59,326 nucleotides of DNA from the NCBI GenBank assembly GCA_030432715.1, contig JAUIML010000002.1, positions 1-59,326 on the forward strand, written 5' to 3'. Below are positions 2,530 to 54,677 of the stretch, piece by piece. The notes under the pieces were generated by a model, which was not told the origin of the DNA, made no database searches, and saw nothing but the letters and a program-made list of their open reading frames with translations. This DNA is from Acidimicrobiia bacterium. Its GTDB lineage: Bacteria > Actinomycetota > Acidimicrobiia > Acidimicrobiales > Aldehydirespiratoraceae. Both the position numbers and the translations under genes were made by a program. Position 1 is the first letter of the stretch, and every line of letters begins with the position of its first letter.

Positions 2530-2548
2530 CGGCGTTAGCCTCGTCGCG

Positions 2549-3976
2549 ATGTCCGAGCTCCACGCCCGCATCCTGGTCTTCACCACGTCGGCCGCGGTGC
2601 TGGTGCTCGAGATCCTGGCCGGACGGCTGATGGCCCCCTACGTGGGCGTCTCGCTCGAGACGTTCACCGCGATCATCGGCACGATCCTGGCCGGCATCGC
2701 CCTCGGCAGCGCCATCGGCGGACGGCTGGCCGACCGCTACGACCCGGCCACGCTCATCGGCCCGGCGCTGGCCATCGGTGGCGCGTTGGCCTGGTGGTCA
2801 CTGTGGATCGTCGGCGTGCTCGGCCCTGAACTCGGCAGCGAACCAGCCGCGATCGTGGTGTTGGCCGCGGTTTCGTTCTTCGCCCCGGCAACGGTGCTCA
2901 CGGCGATCAGCCCGATGGTCGCCAAGCTGCGGCTCAACTCCCTGGAGGACACCGGCAAGGTCGTCGGTGGCCTGTCGGCCTTCGGCACCGCCGGCGCCCT
3001 GTTCGGCACGTTCGTCACCGGCTTCGTCCTCGTCGCCGCGGCGCCGACGCGTCCGACGGTCATGATCGTGGGCGCGCTGTTGGTCGGGTGGGGCCTGTTC
3101 GAGACCGTCCGCATCACCCGCAGGGCGCCGAGCGCCGCGCTCGTCGTCGTGCTGCTGGCGTCGCTCGGGATCGGCGCCACCGCAGACTCACCCTGCGAGT
3201 TCGAGTCGGCCTACTTCTGCGGCCGCGTCGTGGTCGACGAGGACGACGCGTCCGTGCGCTACCTGATCCTCGACACCCTGCGCCACGCGGCCGTCGATCT
3301 CGACGATCCGACCAACCTGGAGTTCCGCTACATCCGGCTCATCACCGACGTGATCAACTCGACGAGCGCGGGGGCGATCGACACCCTCCACGTCGGGGGC
3401 GGCGGCTTCTCCGTCCCGATGTACCTCGAAGCGACGCGGCCCGGCTCCTACAACCACGTGCTCGAGATCGACGACGTGCTGCTCGACGTCGCCCGCGACG
3501 AGCTCGGCTTCGTCACCGGCCCGCTCATGGAGGTGACGATCGGCGACGCTCGTCTCGGGATCGACGACTTCGCCGACGATTCGTTCGATGTGGTGGTGGG
3601 CGACGCCTTCGGGGGACAGTCCGTTCCCTGGCACCTCACCACCACCGAGTTCATCGCCAAGATCGATCGGGTCCTGCGCGACGACGGCGTGTACGTGATG
3701 AACATCATCGACGGCGACGAGAACCGGTTCGCCGAGTGGGAGGTCGCAACCCTGCTCGACAACTTCGCGCATGTCGCCGCCATCATTCCGCCCGGCGGAA
3801 TCGACGCCCGTCCCCGCAACCAGATCCTGGTCGCGTCCGATGCCCCGCTGCCCGTGCTCGAGTTCGACCCGGCCGACGGCGTGCTCGTCGACGACATCGA
3901 TGAGTTCCGCGACGGCGGCACGGTCCTGCGGGACGACTTCGCCCCCGTCGAGCAGCTCGCCGCCAACCCGGGCTGA
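2549..3976 (+). CDS. Fused membrane (MFS-like) / spermidine synthase-like protein
   Basis: 475-aa ORF. The N-terminal half has several hydrophobic helices (ILVFTTSAAVLVLEILAGRLMAPYVGVSLETFTAIIGTILAGIALGSAIGGRLADR). The C-terminal half looks like a methyltransferase/spermidine-synthase fold (VLEIDDVLLDVARDELGF...VVVGDAFGGQSVPWHLTTTEF). Confidence 0.65.
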   Translation: MSELHARILVFTTSAAVLVLEILAGRLMAPYVGVSLETFTAIIGTILAGIALGSAIGGRLADRYDPATLIGPALAIGGALAWWSLWIVGVLGPELGSEPAAIVVLAAVSFFAPATVLTAISPMVAKLRLNSLEDTGKVVGGLSAFGTAGALFGTFVTGFVLVAAAPTRPTVMIVGALLVGWGLFETVRITRRAPSAALVVVLLASLGIGATADSPCEFESAYFCGRVVVDEDDASVRYLILDTLRHAAVDLDDPTNLEFRYIRLITDVINSTSAGAIDTLHVGGGGFSVPMYLEATRPGSYNHVLEIDDVLLDVARDELGFVTGPLMEVTIGDARLGIDDFADDSFDVVVGDAFGGQSVPWHLTTTEFIAKIDRVLRDDGVYVMNIIDGDENRFAEWEVATLLDNFAHVAAIIPPGGIDARPRNQILVASDAPLPVLEFDPADGVLVDDIDEFRDGGTVLRDDFAPVEQLAANPG

Positions 3977-6499: not shown

Positions 6500-7014
6500 G
6501 CTCCCGGCCTTTCGTCGGCGGTCGTGTCGTCGATGAACCCCTGCGACCGCAGCCGTTCGAGGGCCTGGCTGGTGGCCGCCTTGACGGTGCCTTCGGCACA
6601 ACCCAGGTGCTCGGCCGCCTCGGCCACCGAGAGGCCCAGGTAGAAGCGGGCCACCAGCGTCGCCCGCTGGCGCTCCGGCAGCGACGCGACTGCGTCACGG
6701 ATGGCGACACCCTCGGCTGGGTCGACGACGAAGGGCGCGGCCGATCCCCGCGCCCGCCGCTCGATCGACCGCCGGCGCCACCGCGACACCGCGAGGTTGC
6801 GAGCCGTACGAAAGGCCCATCCCTCCGGCGATGCCATCGCCCCGACGGTGTCCCACCGCTCCCAGGCCCGGGCCAACGCCTCCTGCGCGAGCTCCTCGGC
6901 GAGGTGACGGTCGCCGGTGTAGAGCACCAGCGCGGCAACGAGCCGCCCTCGCACGTCTGCACAGAACTGCGCCGGATCGACGGGATTCATCGCCACAGGA
7001 ACGCTTCCCCCCAC
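6496..7014 (-). CDS. ECF-type sigma-70 family RNA polymerase sigma factor
   Basis: Region 2 reads AEELAQEALARAWERWDTVGAMASPEGWAFRTARNLAVSRWRR. Region 4 reads LPERQRATLVARFYLGLSVAEAAEHLGCAEGTVKAATSQALERLR. The start could instead be ATG 6990. Confidence 0.85.
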   Translation of the reverse strand: MGGSVPVAMNPVDPAQFCADVRGRLVAALVLYTGDRHLAEELAQEALARAWERWDTVGAMASPEGWAFRTARNLAVSRWRRRSIERRARGSAAPFVVDPAEGVAIRDAVASLPERQRATLVARFYLGLSVAEAAEHLGCAEGTVKAATSQALERLRSQGFIDDTTADERPGA

Positions 7015-7089: not shown

Positions 7090-10000
7090 TCAGGTGGGGA
7101 GAGGGCCGGGCGGGCGGGAGCGGCGGGCGACGAGCACGAGGGCGGCGCCGAGCAGCAGCAGGACGACAGCCCAACCGAGCAGGCGGGCGATGTCGGTGCC
7201 GGTGATGGCGAGGATCGACTGGGCGGGGGTCTCGGTCGTCCGCGTGATGTCGTCGTCGGGCGCCGTGATCTCGTCGATCACCTCACTCGGGATGGGGTTG
7301 CCACCGACCGTGTTGCCGCCTTCGACGGTGCCGACGTTGACGATCGACTGACCCTCGGCACCGGTGACCGTCGTGGTGAGCACGATGGTCGTCGACGCGT
7401 CGACGGCGAGCACGTCGTCGGTCGTGCAGGTGACGAGTTGTCCGACCGCGTTGCAGTCGAAGTCGTCGCTTGCTGCGCCGACATAGGTCAGGCCGTCCGG
7501 AAGGTCGTCGGTGACGGTGATGGTGTCGTTGGTCGGCGACGGACCGAAGTTGGTCACCACCAGCGTCCAGTCGACGTCCTGCCCCGAGACGAGCTCGCCG
7601 TCGACACTCTTCTCGATGTCGAGCAGGGCGAGCGGAACGTCGACCTCGTCGGTGTCGGTGTCGTTCTCGGGAACGGTGTCGGGCAGGCCGCCGGTCACCG
7701 TGACCTCAGCCGTGTTGGTCACACCCGGCGCGGCTTCGGCACCCACGTCGACGGTGAGCTCGAGCGTCGACGACGCACCGACGGCCAGCGGGCCGGTCGT
7801 GAGGTCACAGGTGAAGGTCTGCCCTGCCACCACGCACGACCAGTCCTCGGCCAGCAGGGCCGTCGGCGTCAGGCCGGCGGGCACCTCGTCGGTCACGGTG
7901 ATCGTCCCCTCGGACACGGCGGGGCCGTTGTTGGTGACCGTCAGCGTCCACACGCCTTCGCCACCGACCGCGAACGGCCCGGTCGACGACTTGTCGATCG
8001 CGATGTCGGCCTCGCGGCGTTCGCCGAAGTCGACGTCGTCACGGTCTTCGCCGGCGCCGAGAGTCACCTCCGTCGTGCGGTCACGGCCACCGTCGAGGTC
8101 GTAGGTCGGCCCCAGGTCGGGTGCCAGCGTGGTCGGGTCGAGCGACACCGTGTAGTCGCCCGGAGGCAGGTTGCCCACGCCGTAGAGCCCACCGCCGGCG
8201 GTCGTGGTCCGGTACTCGACGTCGTCCAGCGACTCGTCGACTCCCGGGGTCGCCGGGTCGTCGCCGAGCACACCATCGAAGCCGGCGAACCGAACGATCA
8301 CATCGACCCCGTCGATCGGCAGCTCGCCGCCGTCCTGCACGCCGTCGGCATCGTCGTCCACCCAGACGAGGTCGCCGATGCTGCCGGTGCCGGTGTAGCC
8401 GAAGTCGACGTCGAGATAGCTCGGGTTCACCCCGGTCAGCGTGATCGACGCCACGATCCCGTCCATCACGCCCGGCTCGGCGTTGTTGGCCTGGGTGTCG
8501 GTGATGTCGGGCGTGTCGACCAGTTCGAAGGTCTGGCGCAGACCCGGAGGGAGGTCATCCGTGTCGACCGTCACCGTGAGCGGGATGTCCTGGGGAAGCC
8601 CGGTGAAGGCGTACTCGCCTTCCTCGTTGGTGGTGGTCGTGATGCTGCGGGTCGACCCGTCCCCCGGATCGAGCCACGACACGGTCACGTCGATGCCGGC
8701 GATGCCCGGTTCACCGGCGTCCTGCTCGCCGTCGTCGTCGACGTCGAACCAGATGCGGTTTCCGAGGTCGGCGTTGGTCGGGGTGAGGCTGGCCGAGTCG
8801 TTGTCGTCCTCGTCGGGACCGACCCCGTCGTCGTGGTTGCCCGGGGTCGAGTCGATGTCCCACTGTCCGGCCGACTCCACCTCGGCGATGTTGACGATCG
8901 TGGTCGAGGAGTTGATCCGCACGACGATGTCGAGCGTGGCCGACGCCCCGGAAGCGAGCGGCGATGCCAGTGTCCACACGTCGGTCGTGTCGTCGTAGGC
9001 ACCGTTGGCGGAACTGGCCGAATCGAAGACCACCCCGGCGGGGAGCACGTCGGTGATGGTCACGTCGGTCGCGGTGTCGACCGCGATGCCGCTGTCGTCG
9101 TTCGTGACCGTCACGCGATAGGTGACGAAGTCGCCGAAGAAGTAGGGGGCCGATTCGACGATGGTCTTGTCGATCGTCAGGTCGATGCGCCGGATGCGCG
9201 CGACTGCGTCGTCGGAGCCGTGGACCCCGTCGGGCGCCCCGTTGTCGTCGCCGTACGAGCCGGTCTCGTTGCTCGACTCGCCGGTTGCGTCGTCGCCGGT
9301 CACTCCGGAGTCGTTGACATGGTCGAACGAGCCGGTGGTCGCCGTGGTCAACAGCGACGCCTGGGGCTGCACGTCGAATTCGATCACGAACGAATCGCCG
9401 GCATCGAGTTCGCCCACGACATCGGTCCACACCAGCGGGCCGGCGGCGCCGCCGGCCGGGTCACCGAGTGCCCCGAACCCACTCCCGGTGTCGATCTCTG
9501 CCGATCCGGGCTGGTACAGCCAGCCCGTGGGCAGCACATCGTCGACGTCGATGTCGAAGGCCGACACCGGGCCGTCGTTGAAGACCTCGAGGCGCCAGCG
9601 GAAATCCTCGCCCACTCGGGCGTCGGTGGCGTCCATTCCCGCGGCCGGCGTCTTCTGGATCACCAGATCGGGGAACCCGACCGTGAGGGTGTTGACATCG
9701 GCGGTGACCGGGTTGCGGCTGTCGCCGTATTCGGGCACGTCGGTGCCGTCGGGCGCCGCGGCTCGATCGGCGGTGGACAGGCCCCAGTAGCTGGGCACGT
9801 CGGCGGTGTTGACCAGATCCTGGTCGTCGGCGAGATCGGCCGACGGGCCGATCACCACGTCGTAGGTGAATGTGACGGATCCACCGGCGGCGGCCAGCGG
9901 ACCGGCGACGGTCCAGGTGAGCGTGCGGGGGCCGGCACCGTCGAACACGGGTGCCGGGGTGCCGATGATGTTCGACGGATCGCCGGCCGCTTCCGCGGGC

Positions 10001-13000
10001 AGCGTGTCGACGACCGTGAGGTCGTGGGCCGGGCCGTCGCCGTTGTTGGTGACGGTCACGGTGAAGCGATGGGTCGCCCCGACTTCGGTGTCGCAGACAT
10101 CGGCGTCGGGCGTCGCCTCACAGGCCGTCGGGCCCGGATCGAGGACCTGGACGTCCTTGTCGATCACCACCAGGGGTTCGATCACGTCGATCGTCTCGGC
10201 TTCGGGGCCGACGGTCTCGTCCCACACCTCTCCGTCGAGGTCGGTGACCTCGTCGGGGTCGGATCCGATCTCGTCGGTCTCGTGCCAGACCACCGAGGCG
10301 GCGTTGTCGCCACTCGAGGCCGTGGTGGCGGCGGTGTCGACATGGGTCGAGTAGGGCAGCGTGATCCGGCACTCGGCGCCGTCGGCGAAGACGTCGCCCA
10401 GGAACCAGCCGGCCGTCTGCCCGTCGGGAGTGAGGGCGATCACGTCGCCGGGGACGAGCGCTCCTCCACCGACCCGTTCGCACTCGGGACCACTGATGGT
10501 CGGGGTGCCGTAGGAGTCGAACTCGAGGAACGACGGGAGCGCGTCGAACACCGCCATGTCGAAGGCGCGGTTGTCGACGGGCACCGCGACGGTCACCTCG
10601 AAGTCAACCGCTTCCCCGACCGCGTAACTCGTGGTGTCGGTGTCGCTCAGATCGAACGGATCGCCGTCGAAGGGGGCGACGTCCTTGGCCAGGGTGGCCA
10701 GGGGCAGCTCCACCGTGTCGGTGTCGGTGTCGGAGTACGTGGTGCGTTCGTTGGCCGCCGGCCCGTCGGCGGCCCGGCTCTCTGCCGTCACCTCCGCGGT
10801 GTTGGTGAGCTGCGTGCTCGCGACAGCCGGGTTGTCGATCGTCACCGTGTAGCTGAGGGTGATCGAATCGCCGACCTCCAGGGCCGCCAGCGCCGCCACT
10901 TCGGCCTGGGTCCAGGTGATCGTTCCTTCTGCGCTGGCCGGCACGCCACTGGCGAAGACACCACCGTCGGGGTTGTCGGCGGGCACGCCCGACGCGAACG
11001 AGACACCCTCGGGCAACACGTCGGTGACGACGAGATCGTAGGCCGCGGAGGTCCGCCCCGAACCGAGGTCGGGATTGGTGACCACCAGCGAGTAGGTGAC
11101 CGAGTCGCCCGGGGCGACGTTGCTGATGCCATCGGCCGGAGTGTCGGTGTCGGTGCCGTCGTCGGACTTCGCGATGGTCGGGTTGGGCTCGTTCACCCAG
11201 GTCGTGATCCGGGGCGACGACGCCGTGGGGGCCGCGGTGCCGCCGCTGGTGTCCCAGTCGACGTCGACGGTGTTGCGGATGGCGTCGCCCACGTCGACCC
11301 CGGGGGCGTCGTCGACGACCACGGTGAAGGTGAGTGACACGAGATCGTCGAGGCTGCCGACCGCGTTGTCCCAGGTGGGCGGGAAGGTGACGGTCACGTC
11401 GTCGGCGGCAACGTCCACGAGCAGGTCACCAGCGTGCTCGGTCGTCGAGCCGTCGACGTCGAAGTAGGCATCGGTGGCCGACGAGATGGTGAGGGGAATG
11501 GTGGTCGCGCCGTTGTCGAGACTCAGCCCGCCGGCGTCGAAACTCACGAAGTCGATCTCGCTGTCGAGATCGTCGGTGATGACGGCGTCGTAGAGGTCGA
11601 CCCCTTCGGGGATCGTCACGTCGAACGTGTAGGTGACCGTCTCGCCGATGGTCGCCTCCTGGGCGCTCGCCGAGGCGGGCGCGTTGGTGTCGTTGGTGCC
11701 GCCGCCGTCGTCGTCGCTCGAGGTCTGCACCTTCACCACAGCGAGGTCGGGCACCGTGACCGTCGCCTGGTCCCTGGCCGCCGTGGCGTTCTCCGACGGC
11801 TCGTTCGCCTCGTCGATGTTGTCCGCAGGCACATAGGTCGGGGTCGACCCGGCATTGCCGGTGCTCCCGGTGTAGTCGCGGACGCCGGCGTCGTTGACCA
11901 GGTCGACACCGGCGACCACGGTGACCGGCAGGGTGATGGAGTACGACAGGGTGGTCGTCTCCTGCGGCGCCAGGTCGACGATCGTCATGGTCAGCACGCT
12001 GCGGCCGTCGGTGGCCTGCCCGCCGAGCGGGTAGCCGACATCGCCGTCGTCGAGACACGTGACCGTCTCACCCGTGCTGAGCGTGGGCGCCGTCGTGACG
12101 TCGGCACACTCGATGTCGATCGGCAGGATGTCCCACGTGCGCACGCCGAACGCGGTGGCGTAGAGGTCCTCGGCGCCGGTGGCGCCCGACTCGAAGTCGT
12201 TGGTGATGTCGACCTCGTAGTCGAACACGTCGAGCTGCACGCCGGTCTCGGCACCGTCGTCGGTGGTATCGCCCGCGGGTGCGTTGCGCTTGTCGAGCAC
12301 GACATGGGGTTCCACGTGGGGATAGCCCGCCTGGTCGCGGCTCGAGAAGGTGACCCCACCACTGTTGTCGTTGTTCTGCAGCGTCAGCTTGGCGAGATTG
12401 TCGATGATGTCGACACCGGTGACGTCACGCGGATCGTCGGACAGCCGCACCGAGAAGATCACTTCGAACCGGTCGGCGGAGTTGTCGACATAGAGGTCGG
12501 AGCCCCCGCCGGGGATGGTGGTCCCGAGCGTCCAGCTCAACGCCTCGTCGGTCGCGCCGCTCGGCGCGGTACCGGGTCCGGCCTCGAAGTCGTAGACCTC
12601 GTCGATGACGGCGTCGTTGACGGTGAACACCTGACCCGTGTCGGTGTCGTCGCCCCAGAAGGCCTCGAACACCGAATCCGGCGGGATGAAGTCGGACACC
12701 ACCGGGTTGCGGAAGTGCAGGTCGCCGAGGAACTCGACGACGATCCGGTAGCAGACGCGATCGCCGGGCCGGTAGGCCCAGTCCGCCTCGTCGGGGGTGG
12801 GCGGAGTGTCCGTCGTGAACGTGGCCGAGTCGCAGTCGAGGAGCACACCCGGTGCCGTCGGTTGAGAGACGCTCTTGTCGATCACGACGACGCCGGACGC
12901 CTGCCCGGCCGAGGACGCGTCCGCTGTGGTCTCGGTGACCCGGTCGAGGTCGACGGCACCGTCCATGATCGGACTGGTGGTCGCAGTGATGTCGACATCG

Positions 13001-14697
13001 TTGGTGAAGGCATCGGCGCCGACAACCGGGGTGTCGTCGTCGAACGCTTCCTGATAGTCGACCCGGACGCGCGACGTGAAGGTGATCTCGTAGTCGTCGT
13101 TGGTCGTGAGGTCGGGAACGGTCGACCACACGAGGGTCCACGACCCGTCGGTGTCCTCGGTGACGACGTCGGGATCGTCGACGACACCGTCGACCGTGGG
13201 CGACGGCAGTCCGCCGGGCTGCAAACACTCGGTGCCGATCGGGGCGATGGTCTCGGGATTGCCCGTCGAGAGGATCGGGCACTGGCCGTCGGGCAGGGAG
13301 TCGGTCACGACGACCCCGGTCGCATCGCGGTACTCGCCGGTCTCGACGACCAGCGTCCAACCGGGCAGCTCGGTCTGGGTGAACACGCCATCGTCGACCG
13401 ACTTGTGGATCGACAGGTCCTCGGCCGTGACCGCCCAGGAGTCCTCGGCCGACGACGTGAGGTCGTCGATCCCCGGGTTGTAGTTGCCGGTCGCCCGCGA
13501 CCAGTTCCGCAGGGTCTGCTCGTCGGTGGTGAGCGGGCCGTTGTTGTTGTCGAGATCGGCCGTGTCGTCGCCGATGTCGACATGGCCGACCGCGAAGGAC
13601 GTGGTGTTCTCGCGGAGGGGGACGCCGGCCGCATACATCAGCTCGAAGCGATCGCTCGGCGCCATCGTGCCGATCGTGGCGCTCAGATCCCAGACGACAT
13701 GGGTGTAGACCCCGGCAGCCTGACCGGGGAACTGCTCGTCGGCGGCGAGCGTCACCGTCTCGACCGTCGTCGGCGTCTCACAGGTGGCGGCCACACCGTT
13801 GCTCGTCGGGTCGGTCGGGCTCACCCCGACACCGAGCGCTCCGGCGCCTGCGTACTCCTCGGTCCCGGTCGCCGACGCGTTGGTGACCGGCACGGCATCG
13901 GTGTTGTCGACGGCTCCGCAACCCAGGAACTCGAGGCCGGCCGGGAGGTAGTCCTCGACCACGATCGAGTCGGTCGGGTCGACGAGGTTGTTGTCGACCG
14001 TCAGGCTGTAGGTGGTCCATTCCGTGTGGACGCCCCGCAACAGTTCACGTTCGGCGTTCGGCTCGAACTTCTCGATGTCGATCGCCTCGATCCGGGTGAC
14101 GATGCTCGCGGTGTCGAAGGCCGAGGTGTCGCCGTTGTCGACATGGGCGCCTGTGGCGTCGAAGTCGGGGATCTGGCGGACGTCGCCGGACATGTAGGCG
14201 CCGCCCGAGTTCGTGACCGTCGAGCCCACCGCGAACGACGCCTCGGTGAGGTCGACGGTGACGGTGATCGACTGTGACACGCCGGACTGGAGGTCGGCCA
14301 CGTTCTCGAACAGCAGGGTGGTCTGCCCCGCCGCGGGTTCGTCGGGGAAGACGGTGGGGTTGCCCGCGCTCGACGACACGAAGGTCGCGCCGGGCGGGAG
14401 CACTTCGCGGAACGTGAGGTTGTAGCCGTCGGCCCCGGTTCCGTTGTTGGTCGCGGTCAGGGTGTAGGTCACGTCCTCGCCGTAGAGGATCGTGGCCGGC
14501 CCGGACTTGGTGAAATCGAGCGACGCGTCGTTGGCCGCCGCTGCGGGTTCGGGCGACGCGACGAGGTCCACGACGGTGAGGCTGGTGGCGAGCAGGGCTG
14601 CGAGGCTCAGCAGGGCGAGCGGGCGGCGGGGGAAGCGGCGAATCACAGAGCGACGGTAGCAGCGCCCCACCATGCATCCGGGAACCCCGCGGAGCAC
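7090..14697 (-). CDS. Giant (about 2535 aa) cell-wall-anchored surface protein/adhesin with DUF11-type and SdrD-B/Cna-B-type repeats and an LAxTG sorting signal
   Basis: Signal-like N-terminus RRFPRRPLALLSLAALLATSLTVVDLVASPEPAAAA. DUF11-like repeats include TVTNNGPAVSEGTITVTDEVPAGL, LVVTNFGPSPTNDTITVTDDLPDGL and VTVTNDDSGIAVDTATDVTITDVLPAGV. Cna-B-like modules include NRIWFDVDDDGEQDAGEPGIAGIDVTV and GDLVWVDDDADGVQDGGELPIDGVDVIV. The start is uncertain (14697, 14673 or GTG 14646). Confidence 0.9.
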   Translation of the reverse strand: MLRGVPGCMVGRCYRRSVIRRFPRRPLALLSLAALLATSLTVVDLVASPEPAAAANDASLDFTKSGPATILYGEDVTYTLTATNNGTGADGYNLTFREVLPPGATFVSSSAGNPTVFPDEPAAGQTTLLFENVADLQSGVSQSITVTVDLTEASFAVGSTVTNSGGAYMSGDVRQIPDFDATGAHVDNGDTSAFDTASIVTRIEAIDIEKFEPNAERELLRGVHTEWTTYSLTVDNNLVDPTDSIVVEDYLPAGLEFLGCGAVDNTDAVPVTNASATGTEEYAGAGALGVGVSPTDPTSNGVAATCETPTTVETVTLAADEQFPGQAAGVYTHVVWDLSATIGTMAPSDRFELMYAAGVPLRENTTSFAVGHVDIGDDTADLDNNNGPLTTDEQTLRNWSRATGNYNPGIDDLTSSAEDSWAVTAEDLSIHKSVDDGVFTQTELPGWTLVVETGEYRDATGVVVTDSLPDGQCPILSTGNPETIAPIGTECLQPGGLPSPTVDGVVDDPDVVTEDTDGSWTLVWSTVPDLTTNDDYEITFTSRVRVDYQEAFDDDTPVVGADAFTNDVDITATTSPIMDGAVDLDRVTETTADASSAGQASGVVVIDKSVSQPTAPGVLLDCDSATFTTDTPPTPDEADWAYRPGDRVCYRIVVEFLGDLHFRNPVVSDFIPPDSVFEAFWGDDTDTGQVFTVNDAVIDEVYDFEAGPGTAPSGATDEALSWTLGTTIPGGGSDLYVDNSADRFEVIFSVRLSDDPRDVTGVDIIDNLAKLTLQNNDNSGGVTFSSRDQAGYPHVEPHVVLDKRNAPAGDTTDDGAETGVQLDVFDYEVDITNDFESGATGAEDLYATAFGVRTWDILPIDIECADVTTAPTLSTGETVTCLDDGDVGYPLGGQATDGRSVLTMTIVDLAPQETTTLSYSITLPVTVVAGVDLVNDAGVRDYTGSTGNAGSTPTYVPADNIDEANEPSENATAARDQATVTVPDLAVVKVQTSSDDDGGGTNDTNAPASASAQEATIGETVTYTFDVTIPEGVDLYDAVITDDLDSEIDFVSFDAGGLSLDNGATTIPLTISSATDAYFDVDGSTTEHAGDLLVDVAADDVTVTFPPTWDNAVGSLDDLVSLTFTVVVDDAPGVDVGDAIRNTVDVDWDTSGGTAAPTASSPRITTWVNEPNPTIAKSDDGTDTDTPADGISNVAPGDSVTYSLVVTNPDLGSGRTSAAYDLVVTDVLPEGVSFASGVPADNPDGGVFASGVPASAEGTITWTQAEVAALAALEVGDSITLSYTVTIDNPAVASTQLTNTAEVTAESRAADGPAANERTTYSDTDTDTVELPLATLAKDVAPFDGDPFDLSDTDTTSYAVGEAVDFEVTVAVPVDNRAFDMAVFDALPSFLEFDSYGTPTISGPECERVGGGALVPGDVIALTPDGQTAGWFLGDVFADGAECRITLPYSTHVDTAATTASSGDNAASVVWHETDEIGSDPDEVTDLDGEVWDETVGPEAETIDVIEPLVVIDKDVQVLDPGPTACEATPDADVCDTEVGATHRFTVTVTNNGDGPAHDLTVVDTLPAEAAGDPSNIIGTPAPVFDGAGPRTLTWTVAGPLAAAGGSVTFTYDVVIGPSADLADDQDLVNTADVPSYWGLSTADRAAAPDGTDVPEYGDSRNPVTADVNTLTVGFPDLVIQKTPAAGMDATDARVGEDFRWRLEVFNDGPVSAFDIDVDDVLPTGWLYQPGSAEIDTGSGFGALGDPAGGAAGPLVWTDVVGELDAGDSFVIEFDVQPQASLLTTATTGSFDHVNDSGVTGDDATGESSNETGSYGDDNGAPDGVHGSDDAVARIRRIDLTIDKTIVESAPYFFGDFVTYRVTVTNDDSGIAVDTATDVTITDVLPAGVVFDSASSANGAYDDTTDVWTLASPLASGASATLDIVVRINSSTTIVNIAEVESAGQWDIDSTPGNHDDGVGPDEDDNDSASLTPTNADLGNRIWFDVDDDGEQDAGEPGIAGIDVTVSWLDPGDGSTRSITTTTNEEGEYAFTGLPQDIPLTVTVDTDDLPPGLRQTFELVDTPDITDTQANNAEPGVMDGIVASITLTGVNPSYLDVDFGYTGTGSIGDLVWVDDDADGVQDGGELPIDGVDVIVRFAGFDGVLGDDPATPGVDESLDDVEYRTTTAGGGLYGVGNLPPGDYTVSLDPTTLAPDLGPTYDLDGGRDRTTEVTLGAGEDRDDVDFGERREADIAIDKSSTGPFAVGGEGVWTLTVTNNGPAVSEGTITVTDEVPAGLTPTALLAEDWSCVVAGQTFTCDLTTGPLAVGASSTLELTVDVGAEAAPGVTNTAEVTVTGGLPDTVPENDTDTDEVDVPLALLDIEKSVDGELVSGQDVDWTLVVTNFGPSPTNDTITVTDDLPDGLTYVGAASDDFDCNAVGQLVTCTTDDVLAVDASTTIVLTTTVTGAEGQSIVNVGTVEGGNTVGGNPIPSEVIDEITAPDDDITRTTETPAQSILAITGTDIARLLGWAVVLLLLGAALVLVARRSRPPGPLPT
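7093..7212 (-). other. C-terminal sorting signal: LAITG, hydrophobic segment, then RRSR tail
   Basis: LAITG is encoded at 7198-7212. It is followed by TDIARLLGWAVVLLLLGAALVLVARRSRPPGPLPT. LAxTG is the motif used by class E sortases of Actinobacteria. Confidence 0.8.
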
Positions 14698-14712
14698 CGC
14701 GCGACCTCGACC

Positions 14713-14723
14713 GAACAGTGTTC
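14713..14723. promoter_or_regulatory. Perfect palindrome GAACAGTGTTC in the 46-nt gap between the LLM stop and the giant gene start
   Basis: Read directly. Its reverse complement shares the 10-mer TGAACACTGT with 17061-17070, upstream of the nearby TetR gene. Confidence 0.3.
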
Positions 14724-19583: not shown

Positions 19584-19669
19584 GACACATCACGGCCCGA
19601 CCGTCCTAACATCTCCCTCCAACCCGCGCCGCAGGCGGTGGTGCGGGTCGTGGGCGGGCGAGGACGGCG

Positions 19670-21388
19670 ATGCGTTGGTGGACGGTGGTCACGATCGGAG
19701 CACTTCTGTCCGTCGTCGCGCCCGCCGCGCCGGCTGGAGGTCTCCACGAGGACTCGACCGACACGCGGGCGCGCCACCCGCACGACTTCCCCGATCCCCA
19801 CATCGTCTACGACCCGGCCAACCGCACCTACACCGCCTACGCCACCAACACGGGGGTGTCGACGCTGCCGATGTTGACGGCGACCCACCTCGACGACTGG
19901 ACCGCCCAGAGCGACACCTTCGACCCACCTTCGTGGGCGGCTCCGGTCGACGGTGGGGTCGAGCTCTGGGCGCCGTCGGTCCACCAGCTCGCGAACGGAG
20001 AATGGCGGGCCTACTCGGCCATCCGCCAACGGTCCGGTTTCCCGCAGCATCGCTACTGCATCTCGGTGGCCATCGGCCCGGGCCCGGCCGGGCCCTTCAC
20101 CGACGACAGCGACGCGCCGCTCACCTGCGGCTACGGCGCCGCCGGCGCCATCGACCCCTGGGTCCACATCGACGACGAGGGCAATCCGTGGCTGCTGTGG
20201 AAGATGGAGGACCACAAGCGGGTCGACATCGCCGACGACGACGTGCACTTCCCGCTCCCCGGTTGGCTCGTGGCCGTGCGGGCCGACGCCCGCGCCCGCG
20301 GCGAACTCGTCCCCTTGCGCCAGATCGACTCAGCGCCCGACGCGATCTGGTCGCAACGCCTCGACGAGCGCGGCCTTGCGTTCCATCAGCCCGACGACGA
20401 GGCCGAGGACGACACACCCTTCTCGGCATCGATCCTGCTCACGGCCCAGACGAAGACCTGGGAACGCAGCATCGTCGAGAGCCCGGCGATGTTCACCGCT
20501 GGAGGCCGGCTCCATCTGCTCTACAGCGGCAACCGCTACCAGTCCCACGAGTACGCCACGGGCTGGGCGACGTGCGATGGCCCCGACGGGCCTTGCTCGA
20601 GGGCGAGTGACCAGCCGATCCTCGCCCACGGCGACACCATCAACGGACCCGGCGGGGCGTCCGTGTTCGTCGACGGAGCCGGCGACCATCGCATCGCCTT
20701 CCATGCCTGGATCGCTCCCCACGTCTCATACGCCGACGGCGGCAAACGCCTTCTCCACATCGAGCAGCTCTGCGTCCTTCCCGACCGGAGCCTGTCGGTT
20801 CGAGTCCCCGACGGATGGCGTTTCTGCGACGTCGATCCGGTCACCTGGTTCGGGGCCGGCGTTGCATGGATGGCCGACGAGGGCATCACCACCGGCGTGA
20901 GCGAGGGCCGTTTCGCGCCCGAACGCTCGCTGTCCCGCGCCGAGGCGGTCACGTTGCTCTGGCGATGGGCCGGGAGTCCCGCGCCGAGCAGGCCGAGCGC
21001 GTTCACCGACGTCGAGGAGGGGCGCTACTACACCCGCGCCGCCCACTGGGCCGCCGAGGTCGGCATCATCCGCGGTACCACTCCGACGACCTTCGATCCC
21101 GACGCGACGATCAATCGGGCGCAGGTCGTGACGATTCTCCACCGCGCCGCCGGCGAGCCCAGCGGACCGGGCGACCCTGCCTTCGACGACGTACCCTCCG
21201 ACGCGTTCTACGCCGCCGCGACCGACTGGGCCGCCGCGGTCGGCATCACCACCGGCCGCACACCGACCGAGTTCCGGCCGGGCGAATCGGCCACCCGGGC
21301 CCAGTTCTCCACGATGCTGTGCCGGTTCTCCCGCACGGATTCGGCCCGCGCGCGATGGGCCGGGCCGCACTGTGAGGACTCGCCCTGA
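19670..21388 (+). CDS. Secreted GH43-like beta-propeller protein with three C-terminal SLH (S-layer homology) domains
   Basis: Signal peptide MRWWTVVTIGALLSVVAPAAPAGG. GH43-like blocks FPDPHIVYDPANRTYTAYATN, ELWAPSVHQL and IDPWVHIDDEGNPWLLWK. SLH repeats FCDVDPVTWFGAGVAWMADEGITTG, FTDVEEGRYYTRAAHWAAEVGIIRG and FDDVPSDAFYAAATDWAAAVGITTG. Confidence 0.7.
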   Translation: MRWWTVVTIGALLSVVAPAAPAGGLHEDSTDTRARHPHDFPDPHIVYDPANRTYTAYATNTGVSTLPMLTATHLDDWTAQSDTFDPPSWAAPVDGGVELWAPSVHQLANGEWRAYSAIRQRSGFPQHRYCISVAIGPGPAGPFTDDSDAPLTCGYGAAGAIDPWVHIDDEGNPWLLWKMEDHKRVDIADDDVHFPLPGWLVAVRADARARGELVPLRQIDSAPDAIWSQRLDERGLAFHQPDDEAEDDTPFSASILLTAQTKTWERSIVESPAMFTAGGRLHLLYSGNRYQSHEYATGWATCDGPDGPCSRASDQPILAHGDTINGPGGASVFVDGAGDHRIAFHAWIAPHVSYADGGKRLLHIEQLCVLPDRSLSVRVPDGWRFCDVDPVTWFGAGVAWMADEGITTGVSEGRFAPERSLSRAEAVTLLWRWAGSPAPSRPSAFTDVEEGRYYTRAAHWAAEVGIIRGTTPTTFDPDATINRAQVVTILHRAAGEPSGPGDPAFDDVPSDAFYAAATDWAAAVGITTGRTPTEFRPGESATRAQFSTMLCRFSRTDSARARWAGPHCEDSP

Positions 21389-28178: not shown

Positions 28179-28655
28179 TCAGCCGAGCAGCGTCGGGAGC
28201 TGTTCGGCGACCTCTTCGGGGGTCACCATCGGTGAGAACCGTGCGACCACGTCGCCGGCCGAGTTCACGAGGAACTTCTCGAAGTTCCAGGTGATGTCGG
28301 AGGTCTCGCCCTCACCGGGCTGCTCCGACTTCAACCAGTCGTAGAGGTCACAGGCGCCGTCGCCGTTGACCTCGATCTTGGCGAACATCGGGAAGTCGAT
28401 GTCGTAGTTGTCCGTCACGAAGGTGCGGATCTCCTCGGCCGAACCCGGTTCCTGGCCGCCGAACTGGTTGCACGGGAAGCCCAGGACCTGGACCCCGTTG
28501 TCGTCATGATGAAGCGTACGCAGACCTGCGTACTGAGGCGTGAGGCCTCAAGCGGAGGCGACGTTGACGATGAGCACGGCGCTGTCGGCGAAATCGCTGA
28601 ACGACACCTGTTCACCCTCGAGCGACGCCATCTCGAACTCGTGGAAACGAGCCAT
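28179..28655 (-). CDS. gpx: Glutathione peroxidase with in-frame TGA (predicted selenocysteine) at the peroxidatic position, codon 36
   Basis: ATG at 28653-28655, with AGGGAG 6 nt upstream. My translation: MARFHEFEMASLEGEQVSFSDFADSAVLIVNVASA-[TGA 28548-28550]-GLTPQYAGLRTLHHDDNGVQVLGFPCNQFGGQEPGSAEEIRTFVTDNYDIDFPMFAKIEV...WNFEKFLV. The track shows only the C-terminal fragment 28179-28418. Confidence 0.8.
28516..28533 (-). other. SECIS-like hairpin GUACGCA-GGUC-UGCGUAC, starting 14 nt after the GPx UGA
   Basis: Perfect 7-bp stem with a GGUC loop, read directly. The apical GCAGGUCUGC matches the E. coli fdhF SECIS apex as I recall it. Confidence 0.65.
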
Positions 28656-44391: not shown

Positions 44392-44441
44392 GTCTCGCTC
44401 GACGACTCCAGTAGGGCCACCCTCGCGCCGATCATGAACGG

Positions 44442-46079
44442 GTGCAGTCCACCGGTCGCCGGCGTGCGCTCCCCACCCTGATCTCGCTCCTCTGCGTGCT
44501 CGCGCTCGTCGCTCCGGCCGGCGCCTACCCGGGTGCCCCGTTCTTCGAGCCGGGCGAGACCTACGACCAGAACTTCCCCGACCCGGCGATCATCCGCGTG
44601 GGGAACACGTACTACGCCTACGCCACCACCACGGGCGGCCAGTCGATGCCGGTGATGACCTCGACCGACCTCGTCACCTGGACCGCTCGCGGCGATGCGC
44701 TCGGGACCGGCCCCTCGTGGACGCCCCCCATCGAGATCGGTTGGAACATCTGGGCGCCGACCGTGGTGGAGTTGCCGAACGGTCAGTACCTCGCCGCGTT
44801 CGCCGCCCGCACCGGCAGTGGTTCCCGCCGGTGCATCGCCACGGCGCGGGCCGACTCTCCCCTCGGCCCGTTCACGGCCCTGGGCGACGAACCCTTCGTC
44901 TGTGAGCCCGACCCCGATGGCGCGCTCGATCCCTTCCTGATCGTCGACGACGCCGATGTGCCCTGGCTGATCTGGAAGAACGAAGGCGTGCCGGTCGGGC
45001 ACCCGACGTTGTCCAGCCGCCGGACCGGTTTCTGGTCGCGCCAGTTGACCGACGACGGCGGGGCATGGCGATCCGGGTCGTCGGTGCACTTCCTGATGGA
45101 GACGACGGAGGTCGAGCGCCCCTGGCAGGGCACCGTCGTGGAGAACCCGGCGATGGCGGCGTGGGACGGCGCCTACTTCCTCACCTACTCGGCCAACTCC
45201 TACCAGAGCACTGCGTACGCGACCGGTTGGGCCCGCTGCTCCACACCGGGCGGTCCCTGTGTCGAACCCTCGACCGAACCGTTGTTGGTGTCCGACGACG
45301 TGCGCCTCGGTCCGGGTGGTCCCGCTCCGTTCGTCGACACCGACGGGGTGCTCCGGTTGGGCTATCACGGCTGGAACCCCCCGTTCACCACCTATCCGTC
45401 CTACCCGTCATGTGACACCGACGGCGACGGCACCTGCCCCGAGGCCCAGCGCTTCCTCTTCATCGACCCGATCTGCGTGAGCGGCGAACGGGCCTTCGTC
45501 TACACCCCGCACGGCGAACCCTTCTGCGACGTCGACCCCGGTCGGTACTACACGGAGGCCGTCGCCTGGCTCGCCGAGGAGGACATCACGACGGGCATCA
45601 GTCCCAGCGCCTATGGCCCCCACCAGACGGTGAGCCGAGCCCAGATGGCCACCTTCCTGTGGCGTTTGATGGGCGAGCCCACCGGCGCGCCGACGGCGCC
45701 GTTCGTCGACGTCGAGACCGGGCGCTTCTACAGCGACGCCGTCGCCTGGCTCGCCGATGCCGACATCACCACCGGACTCACCCCGTCCACGTTCGGGCCC
45801 GACGGCACCGTGACCCGCGCCCAGATGGCGGTCTTCCTGTGGCGACTCGTGGGCGAGCCGACGGCCCCGGCCACCTCGGGGTTCGTCGATGTGGCCGCCG
45901 GTCGGTGGTACTCCGACGGCGTGGCCTGGTTGGCCGACCAGGAGGTGACGACCGGCGTCGCGCCCGGAGTGTTCGATCCCGATGGTGCCGTCACCCGCGC
46001 CCAGATGGCGGCCTTCCTCTGTCGGTTGAGCGGCACGGACGCGTACACGGCGAGCGCCGCCCCCACACCGGGCTGCTGA
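44442..46079 (+). CDS. Secreted GH43-like beta-propeller protein with three C-terminal SLH domains (paralog of 19670-21388)
   Basis: Signal RRRALPTLISLLCVLALVAPAGA. FPDPAIIRVGNTYYAYATTTGG, NIWAPTVVEL, LDPFLIVDDADVPWLIWK. SLH repeats FCDVDPGRYYTEAVAWLAEEDITTG, FVDVETGRFYSDAVAWLADADITTG and FVDVAAGRWYSDGVAWLADQEVTTG. Confidence 0.7.
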   Translation: MQSTGRRRALPTLISLLCVLALVAPAGAYPGAPFFEPGETYDQNFPDPAIIRVGNTYYAYATTTGGQSMPVMTSTDLVTWTARGDALGTGPSWTPPIEIGWNIWAPTVVELPNGQYLAAFAARTGSGSRRCIATARADSPLGPFTALGDEPFVCEPDPDGALDPFLIVDDADVPWLIWKNEGVPVGHPTLSSRRTGFWSRQLTDDGGAWRSGSSVHFLMETTEVERPWQGTVVENPAMAAWDGAYFLTYSANSYQSTAYATGWARCSTPGGPCVEPSTEPLLVSDDVRLGPGGPAPFVDTDGVLRLGYHGWNPPFTTYPSYPSCDTDGDGTCPEAQRFLFIDPICVSGERAFVYTPHGEPFCDVDPGRYYTEAVAWLAEEDITTGISPSAYGPHQTVSRAQMATFLWRLMGEPTGAPTAPFVDVETGRFYSDAVAWLADADITTGLTPSTFGPDGTVTRAQMAVFLWRLVGEPTAPATSGFVDVAAGRWYSDGVAWLADQEVTTGVAPGVFDPDGAVTRAQMAAFLCRLSGTDAYTASAAPTPGC

Positions 46080-51698: not shown

Positions 51699-51702
51699 CT
51701 AG

Positions 51703-51733
51703 CTGATGGTAACACTGGTGATACCACCATCAG
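51703..51733. promoter_or_regulatory. Inverted repeat CTGATGGT-N15-ACCATCAG in the divergent MmyB/aminotransferase gap
   Basis: 8-bp arms read directly. The spacer holds the tandem near-repeat TGGTAACAC/TGGTGATAC. A GGTGCAC...GGTGCACC direct repeat follows at 51751-51774. Confidence 0.4.
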
Positions 51734-51776
51734 AGGGGCCTTCCCCCAGACGGTGCACATCCTTCAGGGTGCACCA

Positions 51777-52952
51777 ATGCCGTCACTGCTCAACCAACGA
51801 TCCCGTACGGCCACCACTTCGGCGATCCGGGATCTCCTCGAACACGCCCAACGGCCGGGGATGATCAGCCTGGCCGGCGGACTGCCCGACCCCAGCCGCT
51901 TCCCGACCGATGAACTCGCGACGATCGCCCAGGCGGTCCTGCGCTCCGACGGCGCCCGCACCCTTCAGTACGGCCTGACCGCCGGTGAACTCGACCTGCG
52001 GCACCACATCGTCGCAACCACTCCGGCGGCGACGTCGATCGACGAAGTCGTGGTCACGACCGGTTCGCAGCAAGGGTTGTGGCTGCTGGCCGAGAGCCTC
52101 CTCGACCCCGGCGACACCGTGGTGGTCTCCGACCCCGAGTATCTCGGCGCGACCCAGGCCTTCCGACGAGCCGGCGCCGACCTCGTGTCGGTGCCCACCG
52201 ACGCCGAGGGACTCGACGTCGAGATGCTCGAGGCCCGTCTCCGCGCGGGGACACGGCCGAAGTTCGTCTACCTGGTGCCCCACTTCCACAACCCCTCGGG
52301 AACCACGCTGTCAGCCGACCGCCACACCCGCCTGCTGGCGCTCGCCGAGCAGCACGGATTCCTGGTCGTGTTCGACGATCCCTATCGCGACCTCCAGGCC
52401 GAGGGTCCCGCACCGGTCGAACCCTCTCCCCACCCGATGAGCGTGCACCTCCGGAGCAGCTCCAAGATCCTCGCCCCGGGTCTTCGCGTCGGTTGGACCG
52501 TCGCCCCCCGGTGGCTCGCCCAGGCCGTCGAACGAACCAAACAGGCCGCCGACCTCCACACCAGCACCGTCAGCCAGGCCATCGTGCTGGGTGCCCTGAC
52601 CGCCGACTGGTACCCACACCACCTCGACGGTCTGCGCGACGCCACCCGGGTCAAGCGGGATGCACTCTGCGCGGCCCTGCGCGGTCGCCTCGGGGATCGC
52701 GTCGAGTTCGACCGCCCGAGCGGCGGAATGTTCGTGTGGGCCAGAGTGGTCGGTCTCGCCGACACCCCGCTCGCCACCACCGACGAACTCCTCCCCGCCG
52801 CGCTCGACCGGGGGGTGGCGTTCGTGCCCGGTTCGGCATTCGCGGTCGACCGCGACCTGTCCGCCCACCTGCGCCTCAGTTGGGCGACCGCCTCGGCGGA
52901 GGAGCTGGAAGTCGCGGTCGATCGACTCGCCGCCGCCATCGACGCCGCGTAG
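51777..52952 (+). CDS. PLP-dependent aminotransferase, class I/II (2-aminoadipate/MocR-type catalytic domain without an HTH)
   Basis: Tail of track ORF 50973-52952. ISLAGGLPDPSRFP, YLVPHFHNPSGTTLS, SSSKILAPGLRVGW (Lys-containing PLP motif). Confidence 0.75.
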   Translation: MPSLLNQRSRTATTSAIRDLLEHAQRPGMISLAGGLPDPSRFPTDELATIAQAVLRSDGARTLQYGLTAGELDLRHHIVATTPAATSIDEVVVTTGSQQGLWLLAESLLDPGDTVVVSDPEYLGATQAFRRAGADLVSVPTDAEGLDVEMLEARLRAGTRPKFVYLVPHFHNPSGTTLSADRHTRLLALAEQHGFLVVFDDPYRDLQAEGPAPVEPSPHPMSVHLRSSSKILAPGLRVGWTVAPRWLAQAVERTKQAADLHTSTVSQAIVLGALTADWYPHHLDGLRDATRVKRDALCAALRGRLGDRVEFDRPSGGMFVWARVVGLADTPLATTDELLPAALDRGVAFVPGSAFAVDRDLSAHLRLSWATASAEELEVAVDRLAAAIDAA

Positions 52953-52965
52953 GGTCGACGTCGTC

Positions 52966-53352
52966 ATGACGCTGATCGACGAACTCGACCCCGACGTGGC
53001 CGGGGCGTTCCTCCATCTCCTCGACGGCGTGTGGGACGGCCGCGTCGACCCGGGCCTGCTCGAACGCTGCCGGATCCGGGTGTGCGAGCTCCTCGGCGCC
53101 GCCCCCGAGGCGGGTCGCCACCCGTCCGGACCCATCGCCGCGCCCGACAGCCCGGCCGCGGCCGCCTGCCTCGCCTTCGCCGAGATGTGGGTGATCGACC
53201 CGCACGCGATGACCGATGAACTGGCCGCCGAGGTGCGCACCCACCTCGACGACGCCGCCGCAGCCGCGTTCACCATCGGCCTGGCCACCATCGAGGCGCA
53301 GGCCCGCGCCGACCTCGCCTGGCGAGCCGTGGACGAAGCAGCCCCGACATGA
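52966..53352 (+). CDS. AhpD/carboxymuconolactone-decarboxylase (CMD)-like protein without a CxxC motif
   Basis: Tail of track ORF 52660-53352. MTLIDELDPDVAGAFLHLLDGVWDGRVDPGLLERCRIRVCELLGA...FAEMWVIDPHAMTDEL. Family resemblance only. Confidence 0.5.
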   Translation: MTLIDELDPDVAGAFLHLLDGVWDGRVDPGLLERCRIRVCELLGAAPEAGRHPSGPIAAPDSPAAAACLAFAEMWVIDPHAMTDELAAEVRTHLDDAAAAAFTIGLATIEAQARADLAWRAVDEAAPT

Positions 53353-53816
53353 GGTTCCCGCCGCCCGACGGGTCGATGAACTTCTTCGAACACGACGCCG
53401 AGCTCAACGAGCGCTTCGATGCCTTCTACGCTCGCCTCTGGCAGCACGGCGTGGTCGACGAAGCGACCAAGGAGGTCGGACGACTCCGCAACGCCCGGAT
53501 CACCGACTGCGGCATTTGACGCAACCTCCGCTTCGCAGGTGCGCAGCAGCAGGGTCTCACCGAGGAGATGGTCGAACTCATCGACGGCCCGGTCGACGCG
53601 ACCGATCTGTCGGACCGTTGGAAGGACGCGGTGAACTGGGCCGATGCCGTGATCGGCGTCCGTCCACCCCTGCCCGTCGGCGACGCCTTGAGCCGGCCCG
53701 AACGGGCGGAGCTGACGCTCACCGTGGCCGTTGCCCAGGGCTTCTCGAAGGCCGCGATCGCATGGGGGCCCGCCCCGGAACTCCCGACGATGGTCATCCC
53801 GACCCCGGGATCGTGA
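53349..53816 (+). CDS. AhpD/CMD-like protein with in-frame TGA (predicted selenocysteine) forming a C-x-x-U redox motif, codon 57
   Basis: The ATG at 53349 overlaps the upstream TGA (ATGA). My translation: MRFPPPDGSMNFFEHDAELNERFDAFYARLWQHGVVDEATKEVGRLRNARITDCGI-[TGA 53517-53519]-RNLRFAGAQQQGLTEEMVELIDGPVDATDLSDRWKDAVNWADAV... The track shows only 53568-53816. Confidence 0.7.
53530..53547 (+). other. SECIS-like hairpin GCUUCGC-AGGU-GCGCAGC, starting 10 nt after the AhpD-like UGA
   Basis: Pairs are G30-C47, C31-G46, U32-A45, a U33/C44 mismatch, then C34-G43, G35-C42 and C36-G41. The loop is AGGU. GGU lies at +19..+21 after the UGA, the same spacing I recall for fdhF. Confidence 0.5.
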
Positions 53817-53894: not shown

Positions 53895-54677
53895 ATGGCC
53901 CGACCTCCGCACCCGCTCCTCGCGCTGATGGAGCTCCGCGCCGCCCCTGAACTCGGCGCCTTCGCAGCCACCGCGCCGATGATGGCGGCCATGCTCCCGC
54001 GGGCGCGCGCCGAACGCCACGTGTTGGTGCTTCCCGGCTTCATGGCCGGTGATGCCAGCACCAAGCCGCTTCGGCTGTTGCTGTCGAACCTCGGCTACGA
54101 CACCCAGGGCTGGGGCCTCGGCACCAACCTCGGTCCCACCGCCGAGATCGTCGACGGACTCATCGATCTCATCGCCCACCTCGATCGCAAGAAGGGTCCG
54201 ATCGATCTCGTCGGATGGTCACTGGGCGGACTGTTCGCCCGCGAGATGGCCCGGATCGCCCCGTCGACCATCCGTCAGGTGATCACCCTGGGCAGCCCGT
54301 TCCAGACCACCGGCCCGGAGCAGTCCAACGCCCGTATCGCCTTCGCCGCCCTGCGGCGCCGGCACAGCGACGACTTCCCCGTGCCCCGCACCCCGAGCTG
54401 GGCACGCGAACCCCTGTCGGTCCCCACCACCTCGATCTACACCCGTACCGACGGCGTGGTCAGCTGGCATCAGTGCCTCAACCGTGACCTGCCCCGGACC
54501 GAGAACATCGAGGTCTACGGAAGCCACTGCGGCCTGGGCCACAACCCGGCCGCGGTGTTCGCGATCGCCGATCGGCTCGCGCAGAGCCACGACCACTGGC
54601 AGCCCTTTCGCGCCCCTCGGCGCTTCCGCGGGTTCTACCCGTCGAGCGACGTGCTCGACACGGCCCGCGTCGCCTGA
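53895..54677 (+). CDS. Alpha/beta-fold hydrolase
   Basis: 260 aa. HVLVLPGFMAGDAST and the nucleophile elbow GWSLGG. Confidence 0.6.
   Translation: MARPPHPLLALMELRAAPELGAFAATAPMMAAMLPRARAERHVLVLPGFMAGDASTKPLRLLLSNLGYDTQGWGLGTNLGPTAEIVDGLIDLIAHLDRKKGPIDLVGWSLGGLFAREMARIAPSTIRQVITLGSPFQTTGPEQSNARIAFAALRRRHSDDFPVPRTPSWAREPLSVPTTSIYTRTDGVVSWHQCLNRDLPRTENIEVYGSHCGLGHNPAAVFAIADRLAQSHDHWQPFRAPRRFRGFYPSSDVLDTARVA

Follow-up and report, generated by a model that had tools for sequence, protein, structure and literature searches.

A predicted AhpD-like CxxU selenoprotein gene and its probable translational coupling to a paralog without the redox motif in an Acidimicrobiia bacterium

The window analyzed here is a 59 kb stretch of DNA (59,326 nucleotides of contig JAUIML010000002.1, from an Acidimicrobiia bacterium) with 69% G+C and 34 predicted genes, and it contains two adjacent forward-strand genes related to the CMD/AhpD fold. 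The upstream gene (52966–53352), which we call the partner, encodes a 128-residue diverged paralog without a CxxC motif. Its TGA stop codon (53350–53352) overlaps the ATG start codon (53349–53351) of the downstream gene in an ATGA junction (53349–53352), a signature of translational coupling. The downstream gene (53349–53816) is a predicted AhpD-like (CMD-fold) selenoprotein gene of 155 codons plus a stop (53814–53816), and its reading frame passes through a TGA at 53517–53519 that we predict to be a selenocysteine (Sec) codon, number 57. This TGA completes the putative redox motif C54-G-I-U57 (TGC GGC ATT TGA, 53508–53519), which aligns with the C-x-I-C of cysteine (Cys) homologs, and the peptide spanning it reads GRLRNARITDCGI-[TGA]-RNLRF. 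The start codon, the overlap, the position of the TGA and the length of the frame had all been put forward in a preliminary description of the locus and were confirmed on the sequence. Of the 34 window genes, 25 end in TGA as their normal stop codon, and the genetic code is therefore one without reassignment.

Searches with the joined protein, in which U was replaced by C, support the family assignment that had been proposed. Pfam CMD (PF02627) was matched at 29.5 bits, above its gathering cut-off of 23, over residues 18–99, an interval that spans the TGA. Among 5.8 billion proteins, 218 homologs were found (best E = 6.6e-50, 99% coverage), and the top homologs are 163–172 residues long and share 57–60% identity over 95–100% coverage. 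In alignments, the TGA takes the place of the second Cys in a near-invariant C-[GAP]-I-C-R-N-L-R-F motif, and this column is Cys in 120 of 120 homologs among the matches listed, in agreement with the earlier placement of the TGA at the second CxxC position. E42, C54 and R61 are invariant among the same listed homologs. R61 (codon 53529–53531) is Arg in all 129 family members examined and occupies the position of the relay His of AhpD and PA0269. The codon at the TGA position is TGC or TGT in 36 of 36 homologs from GTDB genomes, in a scan whose patterns required Cys or RNARVTGCxI and which was thus biased to Cys forms, could not match the window lineage and says nothing on the rarity of TGA forms. 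Orthologs exist in both states, with Cys codons in these genomes and TGA in ten metagenome contigs described below.

The window protein is about 7 residues shorter than most homologs near residues 105–112. At 53649–53690, the window and its closest relatives (L047, L042 and L046) lack ~2–7 residues of a variable loop after the I-G residues. No NCBIfam model reached its cut-off with the AhpD-like protein. Weak matches of the family were to the YciW-related (seleno)protein, TIGR01926, TIGR04030 and GSU3128 family models; TIGR01926 was weakly matched by 17 of 24 Cys homologs (best 1.8e-7) and was absent from the matches of the window protein up to E = 1. By these profile comparisons, the window protein is a CMD-fold protein that is neither AhpD sensu stricto nor a member of any named equivalog family.

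The TGA recurs in independent data. A scan of JGI metagenomes using a degenerate DNA motif pattern with the TGA fixed (~49 bits, chance expectation well below one) returned 10 contigs from different projects, with frames intact on both sides of the TGA in 10 of 10. These contigs are syntenic with the window, sharing, in this order, genes for MeaB, a P450, an MmyB-like regulator, an aminotransferase, the partner, the AhpD-like protein, an alpha/beta-hydrolase and an acyltransferase. Their neighboring genes are 56–97% identical to those of the window, and their AhpD-like proteins are 66%–95% identical to the window copy. The identical TGA was found in a contig from the independent Logan assembly, and three Sanger reads from GOS also carry it. 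Clustering at 90% identity places the N-terminal fragment of 56 residues in a group of 33 members from NCBI, JGI, ENA and Logan, mostly 56 or 47 residues long; one of them is annotated "hypothetical protein [Acidimicrobiales bacterium]", which also points to the taxon of the window. The same cluster holds an unrelated 514-residue Planctomycetaceae DUF4200 protein, probably a clustering artefact of the public collection.

Synonymous divergence (dS) between the window and its relatives is ~0.3 for the closest locus (L047) and ~0.9–2 for the others, and the ratio of nonsynonymous to synonymous divergence (dN/dS) between the window and its TGA-clade relatives is 0.05–0.22 before the TGA and 0.14–0.33 after it. 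Such ratios indicate that the region 3' of the TGA is under purifying selection. In a neighbor-joining tree the TGA forms are monophyletic (9/9) and nested among Cys forms. Judged from these sequence comparisons, the in-frame TGA is almost certainly a real Sec codon.

A hairpin resembling a selenocysteine insertion sequence (SECIS) lies directly downstream at 53525–53553. Its core, GCUUCGC-AGGU-GCGCAGC (53530–53547), begins 10 nucleotides past the TGA and forms 3+3 base pairs around a U.C mismatch, and the GGU of its AGGU loop (53537–53540) stands at +19 to +21; the hairpin had been described with just this position, pairing and spacing. Counting the U of UGA as 1, the consensus structure from 10 sequences comprises a lower stem between C9–C12 and G33–G37 (C9-G37, C10-G36, U11-A35, C12-G33), a middle stem (G14-C31, C15-G30, U16-A29) and an upper stem (C18-G27, G19-C26, C20-G25) closing the loop A21-G22-G23-U24, with U17 and C28 mismatched. 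Between 9 and 10 of the 10 pairs are present in all 11 TGA forms. The middle stem is fully paired (3/3) in 11 of 11 TGA forms against 1 of 34 Cys forms, and the AGGU loop occurs in 11 of 11 TGA forms against none of the 34 Cys forms. This distribution supports a hairpin that is SECIS-like, as had been suggested, and specific to the TGA clade.

The spacing shared with the fdhF element, as proposed in the preliminary description, was confirmed when the Escherichia coli K-12 gene was compared directly. There the Sec codon is followed by UGACACGGCCCAUCGGUUGCAGGUCUGCACC, and GCAGGU occupies nucleotides 19–24 in both genes, in identical register, with U17 unpaired in both predicted structures. The loop codons of the window gene, GCA for A63 and GGT for G64, are rare in this 69% G+C genome and invariant across the TGA clade. 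Cys forms read A-R-[DE]-x-G at the place where A-Q-Q-Q-G (GCG CAG CAG CAG GG) in TGA forms creates the 3' arm of the stem. At sites where the amino acid is conserved and its codons are four-fold degenerate or more, counting wobbles that were free in the search pattern or lay outside it, codon diversity is 1.5 codons per site for codons 58–69 and 2.8 elsewhere (Mann–Whitney p = 6e-4). As far as codon choice can show it, a constraint at the RNA level is shown to act on the hairpin.

We identified a second candidate selenoprotein in the window, a 158-residue glutathione peroxidase (GPx) encoded on the reverse strand at 28179–28655, with an in-frame TGA (28550–28548) in the context VNVASA-U-GLTPQY. 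The open reading frame (ORF) past this TGA matches Pfam GSHPx only from profile position 34 of 108; the joined protein matches GPx structures over its full length, yeast Hyr1 among them with E = 4.6e-38, and the TGA falls on the catalytic Cys. A SECIS-like hairpin (28516–28533, reverse strand; GUACGCA-GGUC-UGCGUAC) has a perfect 7-bp stem with a minimum free energy (MFE) of -18.9 kcal/mol (z = -2.41), and its decamer GCAGGUCUGC is that of the apical hairpin of E. coli fdhF, offset by one codon. GPx selenoproteins from GOS share the U-motif of the window GPx. A scan of the window for in-frame stops flanked by long coding stretches returned the TGA of the AhpD-like gene alone and missed the GPx, because the N-terminal piece of the latter has just 35 codons; the gene surfaced through its truncated Pfam match. 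Two independent genes with TGA at a catalytic Cys and a shared apical motif, within 59 kb, give strong though indirect support to a working Sec system in this organism. A recent preprint (10.64898/2026.04.03.716425) reports Sec machinery from a different order of the class Acidimicrobiia, and the Sec trait occurs in various Actinobacteria (PMC5029168).

The partner gene accompanies the AhpD-like gene well beyond the TGA clade. The same 128-residue product is called on the independent Logan contig. When aligned families were compared as profiles with hhalign, partner and AhpD-like families matched with 99.1% probability (E = 7.5e-19, 142 columns), and Pfam CMD was matched by 10 of 23 partner orthologs (best 2e-12). 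The partner family lacks CxxC and has invariant E73, D78, D84 and R114. The earlier view of the upstream gene as an AhpD-like protein without CxxC is thus upheld at the level of the family, and these matches identify the partner as a diverged paralog of CMD type from which the redox motif has been lost. A profile search located a partner ortholog immediately 5' of the AhpD-like gene in every testable locus, 35 of 35 with Cys and 9 of 9 with TGA; the titles of these loci name Acidimicrobiia, other Actinomycetota, Binatia, Acidobacteriota, Thermodesulfobacteriota and Proteobacteria. As for the conservation of the two-gene ATGA arrangement, the pairing itself is conserved in 44 of 44 testable loci and a 4-nucleotide ATGA or GTGA overlap in 9 of 9 testable TGA loci; the overlap does not extend to all Cys loci, where junctions are mostly within ~25 nucleotides, often TGATG, and gaps reach 80 nucleotides. 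No neighbor other than the partner is conserved across loci of the AhpD-like family. Judged by this distribution, the two-gene module is real and ancient.

We consider it highly probable that the locus specifies an AhpD-like CxxU selenoprotein with SECIS-directed UGA decoding, coupled to a redox-dead paralog and likely part of a hetero-oligomer. Under this model, 53349–53816 would encode a 155-residue AhpD-like (CMD-fold) thiol/selenol oxidoreductase, in which UGA codon 57 is presumably read as Sec to form the C54-G-I-U57 redox center. A SECIS hairpin of bacterial type within the coding sequence (53525–53553) would direct decoding, and its apical part, with GCAGGU at nucleotides 19–24 and an unpaired U17, appears to copy the region of the E. 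coli fdhF element that SelB binds. Through the ATGA overlap, translation would be coupled to that of the upstream paralog (52966–53352), which seems to have retained the fold and lost the redox motif. The most likely outcome would be a hetero-oligomer of both products in which one type of chain is redox-active, similar to the rings built from dimers that are formed by PA0269 and other single-domain AhpD-like proteins. By analogy, we infer that the substrate may be a peroxide or a protein disulfide or sulfenate.

Several observations weigh against this reading. The stability of the hairpin is unexceptional for G+C-rich sequence (MFE z = +1.07 against shuffled sequences), and Cys homologs fold equally or more stably in other registers, so the evidence for the element rests on its conserved register and loop, not on stability. 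The upper three pairs (CGC/GCG around a Gly codon) are also present in many Cys homologs (L002–L037, within the 45 nucleotides after the Cys codon), because the codons of F-A-G-A (F-A-x-A) yield them. Compensatory covariation is absent across the 10-sequence consensus, because the element is nearly invariant. The covariance check proposed for the SECIS came back negative: Rfam gave no match in the whole window at gathering thresholds or in 53450–53650 at E up to 10, a null result that says nothing about the element, since Rfam covers bacterial SECIS elements hardly at all. The window contains no tRNA, and no tRNA-Sec was found in it or in any of ten scanned loci of the TGA clade (L038–L047); no selA, selB, selC or selD was seen among the window ORFs scanned, in the 59 kb of the genome that the window covers. 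The window copy of the partner (128 residues) matched no Pfam or NCBIfam model, and the Arg61 found in place of the relay His means that the active-site chemistry may differ from that of AhpD.

Three other accounts of the TGA have to be weighed. A TGC-to-TGA nonsense mutation in a Cys-type AhpD-like gene, followed by decay of the downstream frame, would take a single transversion, and the 7 residues missing around 105–112 and the annotation of a 56-residue hypothetical protein only, by public gene callers and NCBI, fit such a pseudogene. We nevertheless find it hardly credible, as at least nine distinct orthologs, with protein identities as low as 66%, retain the TGA and show neither additional stops nor frameshifts, dN/dS after the TGA is 0.14–0.33 at a dS of ~0.3 for the closest relative and ~0.9–2 for others, and synonymous positions immediately past the TGA are better conserved than other synonymous positions. 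One base separates TGC from TGA, and a sequencing or assembly error in the Cys codon would suffice to produce it; this explanation has virtually no standing against an identical TGA in the Logan assembly, 10 JGI contigs, three GOS reads and the 33-member cluster. It is also quite unlikely that translation ends at the UGA and ATG 53568 starts a separate C-terminal product, or that a near-cognate Cys or Trp tRNA reads through the codon without the Sec machinery. An in-frame ATG does occur 17 codons past the TGA, and UGA is a leaky stop codon. However, conservation in the protein is highest across the 16 codons between TGA and ATG, which match Cys homologs (RNLRFAGA), and this argues that they are translated as one chain; ATG 53568 is not conserved, other TGA-clade genes having A, D, V or R there. 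A clade-specific hairpin with the fdhF hexamer and a second gene, the GPx, are predicted by SelB-dependent decoding, not by leakiness.

A further alternative leaves the Sec codon in place and concerns the pairing: the adjacent CMD genes may be co-regulated paralogs, each homo-oligomeric, that form no heteromeric enzyme. We regard this as doubtful yet by no means far-fetched, as the solved single-domain AhpD-like proteins are homo-oligomeric (a hexamer for PA0269, a trimer for Mycobacterium tuberculosis AhpD). It accounts less readily for 44 of 44 adjacency across distant phyla with no other neighbor conserved, for the start/stop overlap or short gap in most loci, and for a partner that has no redox motif and still conserves E73, D78, D84 and R114, which is hard to understand in a stand-alone enzyme. 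Evidence for the heteromeric reading is the adjacency, which spans Actinomycetota, Binatia, Acidobacteriota and Proteobacteria, and an Arg that is invariant in place of the relay His. Our fuller proposal, that the CxxC/CxxU chain and its Cys-less paralog constitute an undescribed obligate heteromeric AhpD-like oxidoreductase that underwent a Cys-to-Sec upgrade in one marine Acidimicrobiales lineage, is a tentative one, to which we give somewhat less than even confidence.

Outside the pair, the genes flanking it are shared within the TGA clade. A class I/II aminotransferase gene (51699–52952, start approximate, forward strand; Pfam Aminotran_1_2, E = 2.3e-37) ends 13 nucleotides before the partner gene and is syntenic in TGA-clade loci only. 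An alpha/beta-hydrolase gene (53895–54677, forward strand; Pfam Abhydrolase_6/1) starts 78 nucleotides downstream of the AhpD-like gene and is syntenic throughout the TGA-clade loci. The partner is the sole universally recurring neighbor in Cys-clade loci, and genomic context is therefore silent on function. Elsewhere in the window, a giant ORF of ~2540 residues at 7090–14721 (reverse strand) contains seven DUF11 repeats and SdrD B-like domains, and its product is probably a cell-surface repeat protein. Paralogous proteins encoded at 19610–21388 and 44415–46079 (both forward strand) carry S-layer homology (SLH) domains in addition to a GH43 glycoside hydrolase domain, which suggests wall-anchored glycosidases. 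Two long ORFs with coding signatures of high G+C at third codon positions (high GC3), at 2525–3976 (forward strand, ~480 residues) and 3992–6694 (reverse strand, ~900 residues), had no Pfam match at E ≤ 1e-5.

These results bear on annotation as well as on the family itself. Pipelines truncate the selenoprotein, and public records show "hypothetical protein" entries of 56 and 82 residues instead of one enzyme of 155 residues; the GPx gene is likely split in the same way where TGA is treated as a stop. AhpD-like CxxU proteins have been catalogued since 2005–2008, and the selenoprotein in itself adds nothing new biologically. That a redox-dead paralog always accompanies the AhpD-like gene suggests a heteromeric enzyme, in contrast to the homo-oligomers otherwise known from the family. 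Comparison of Cys and Sec forms further suggests how a SECIS could be built from a codon-derived hairpin by few substitutions: because the upper stem pre-existed in the F-A-G-A codons, the switch appears to have needed mainly the replacement of A-R-[DE]-x by A-Q-Q-Q, that is, R-[DE]-x by Q-Q-Q, and the codon choice GCA GGT. A literature search on heteromeric CMD/AhpD pairs returned nothing relevant and no description of obligate pairing. Obligate pairing with a Cys-less paralog, together with this route from Cys to Sec, is apparently undescribed and of modest value.

Among characterized proteins, M. tuberculosis AhpD shares with the window protein the CMD fold, a CxxC redox center and the conserved Glu. 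AhpD is a reductase that regenerates the peroxiredoxin AhpC, and its second Cys (Cys133), the position of the predicted Sec in the window protein, is the nucleophile, which fits the placement of Sec at residue 57. The two differ in that the relay His is missing from the window protein, where the Glu...Cys-x-x-Cys-x-x-x-His relay is not found. The TIGR00778 AhpD core domain scores 12.7 bits with the window protein against a cut-off of 27.8, and no AhpC/peroxiredoxin gene is present within 5 kb of the AhpD-like gene. We also considered a pair known from the models TIGR04030 (perox_Avi_7169) and TIGR04029 (CMD_Avi_7170), presumably adjacent CMD genes of which one has an alkylhydroperoxidase core motif. 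Of 24 Cys homologs, 13 matched TIGR04030 below threshold, at best with E = 5e-6, and the window protein did not match it; TIGR04029 was never matched by the partner family, and the window proteins match neither model. Identity with the Avi_7169/Avi_7170 pair was rejected, and the window pair is a different one.

The closest solved structure by sequence (E ~1e-9) is PA0269 of Pseudomonas aeruginosa (PDB 2o4d, 2ijc; PMC3141380), itself only ~9% identical in sequence to M. tuberculosis AhpD. PA0269 is likewise a single-domain all-helical CMD-fold protein with a Glu and CxxC on a two-helix motif, and its Glu36, Cys48 and Cys51 correspond to E42, C54 and U57 of the window protein. Its proton relay consists of Glu36/Cys48/Tyr50/Cys51/His55 (PMC3141380). 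The window protein differs in having Arg61 for the relay His55 and Ile56 for Tyr50, and PA0269 has Cys where Sec is predicted here and forms a homohexamer from a single gene. The hairpin finds its counterpart in the E. coli fdhF SECIS, which also follows directly after UGA and has GCAGGU at nucleotides 19–24, G23/U24 in the loop and U17 unpaired. It differs from that element in a loop of 4 instead of 6 nucleotides, in its other stem sequences and in its high-G+C actinobacterial host.

As the preliminary description had stated, AhpD-like selenoproteins are known from computational surveys. In the Sargasso Sea, CxxU AhpD-like selenoproteins comprised 27 sequences in COG2128 and 4 termed "CMD domain-containing" (Zhang, Fomenko and Gladyshev 2005, PMC1088965), and GOS yielded the families AhpD-like 1 (299 sequences) and AhpD-like 2 (70 sequences) (Zhang and Gladyshev 2008, PMC2398784); the AhpD-like selenoproteins of these two papers reappear in later reviews and databases. 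Among the AhpD-like 1 entries in supplementary file 3 of PMC2398784 are three reads with the sequence HDAELNDRFDAFYARLWQHGVVDEATKEVGRLRNARITDCGIURNLRFAGAQQQGLTEEMVELID, which match the window protein at 64 of 65 residues and are identical to locus L047. The selenoprotein itself is thus already known, having been catalogued in 2008 as a computational prediction. Most other AhpD-like 1 entries (e.g., ...NECEYU...) belong to a subfamily quite different from that of the window protein. The catalogue consists of read fragments, in which the full-length gene, genomic context, upstream paralog and taxon are not given. What the window gene has in common with AhpD-like 1 is a CxxU motif in an AhpD/CMD fold, its occurrence in marine metagenomes, the Sec/Cys pair and a SECIS-like hairpin.

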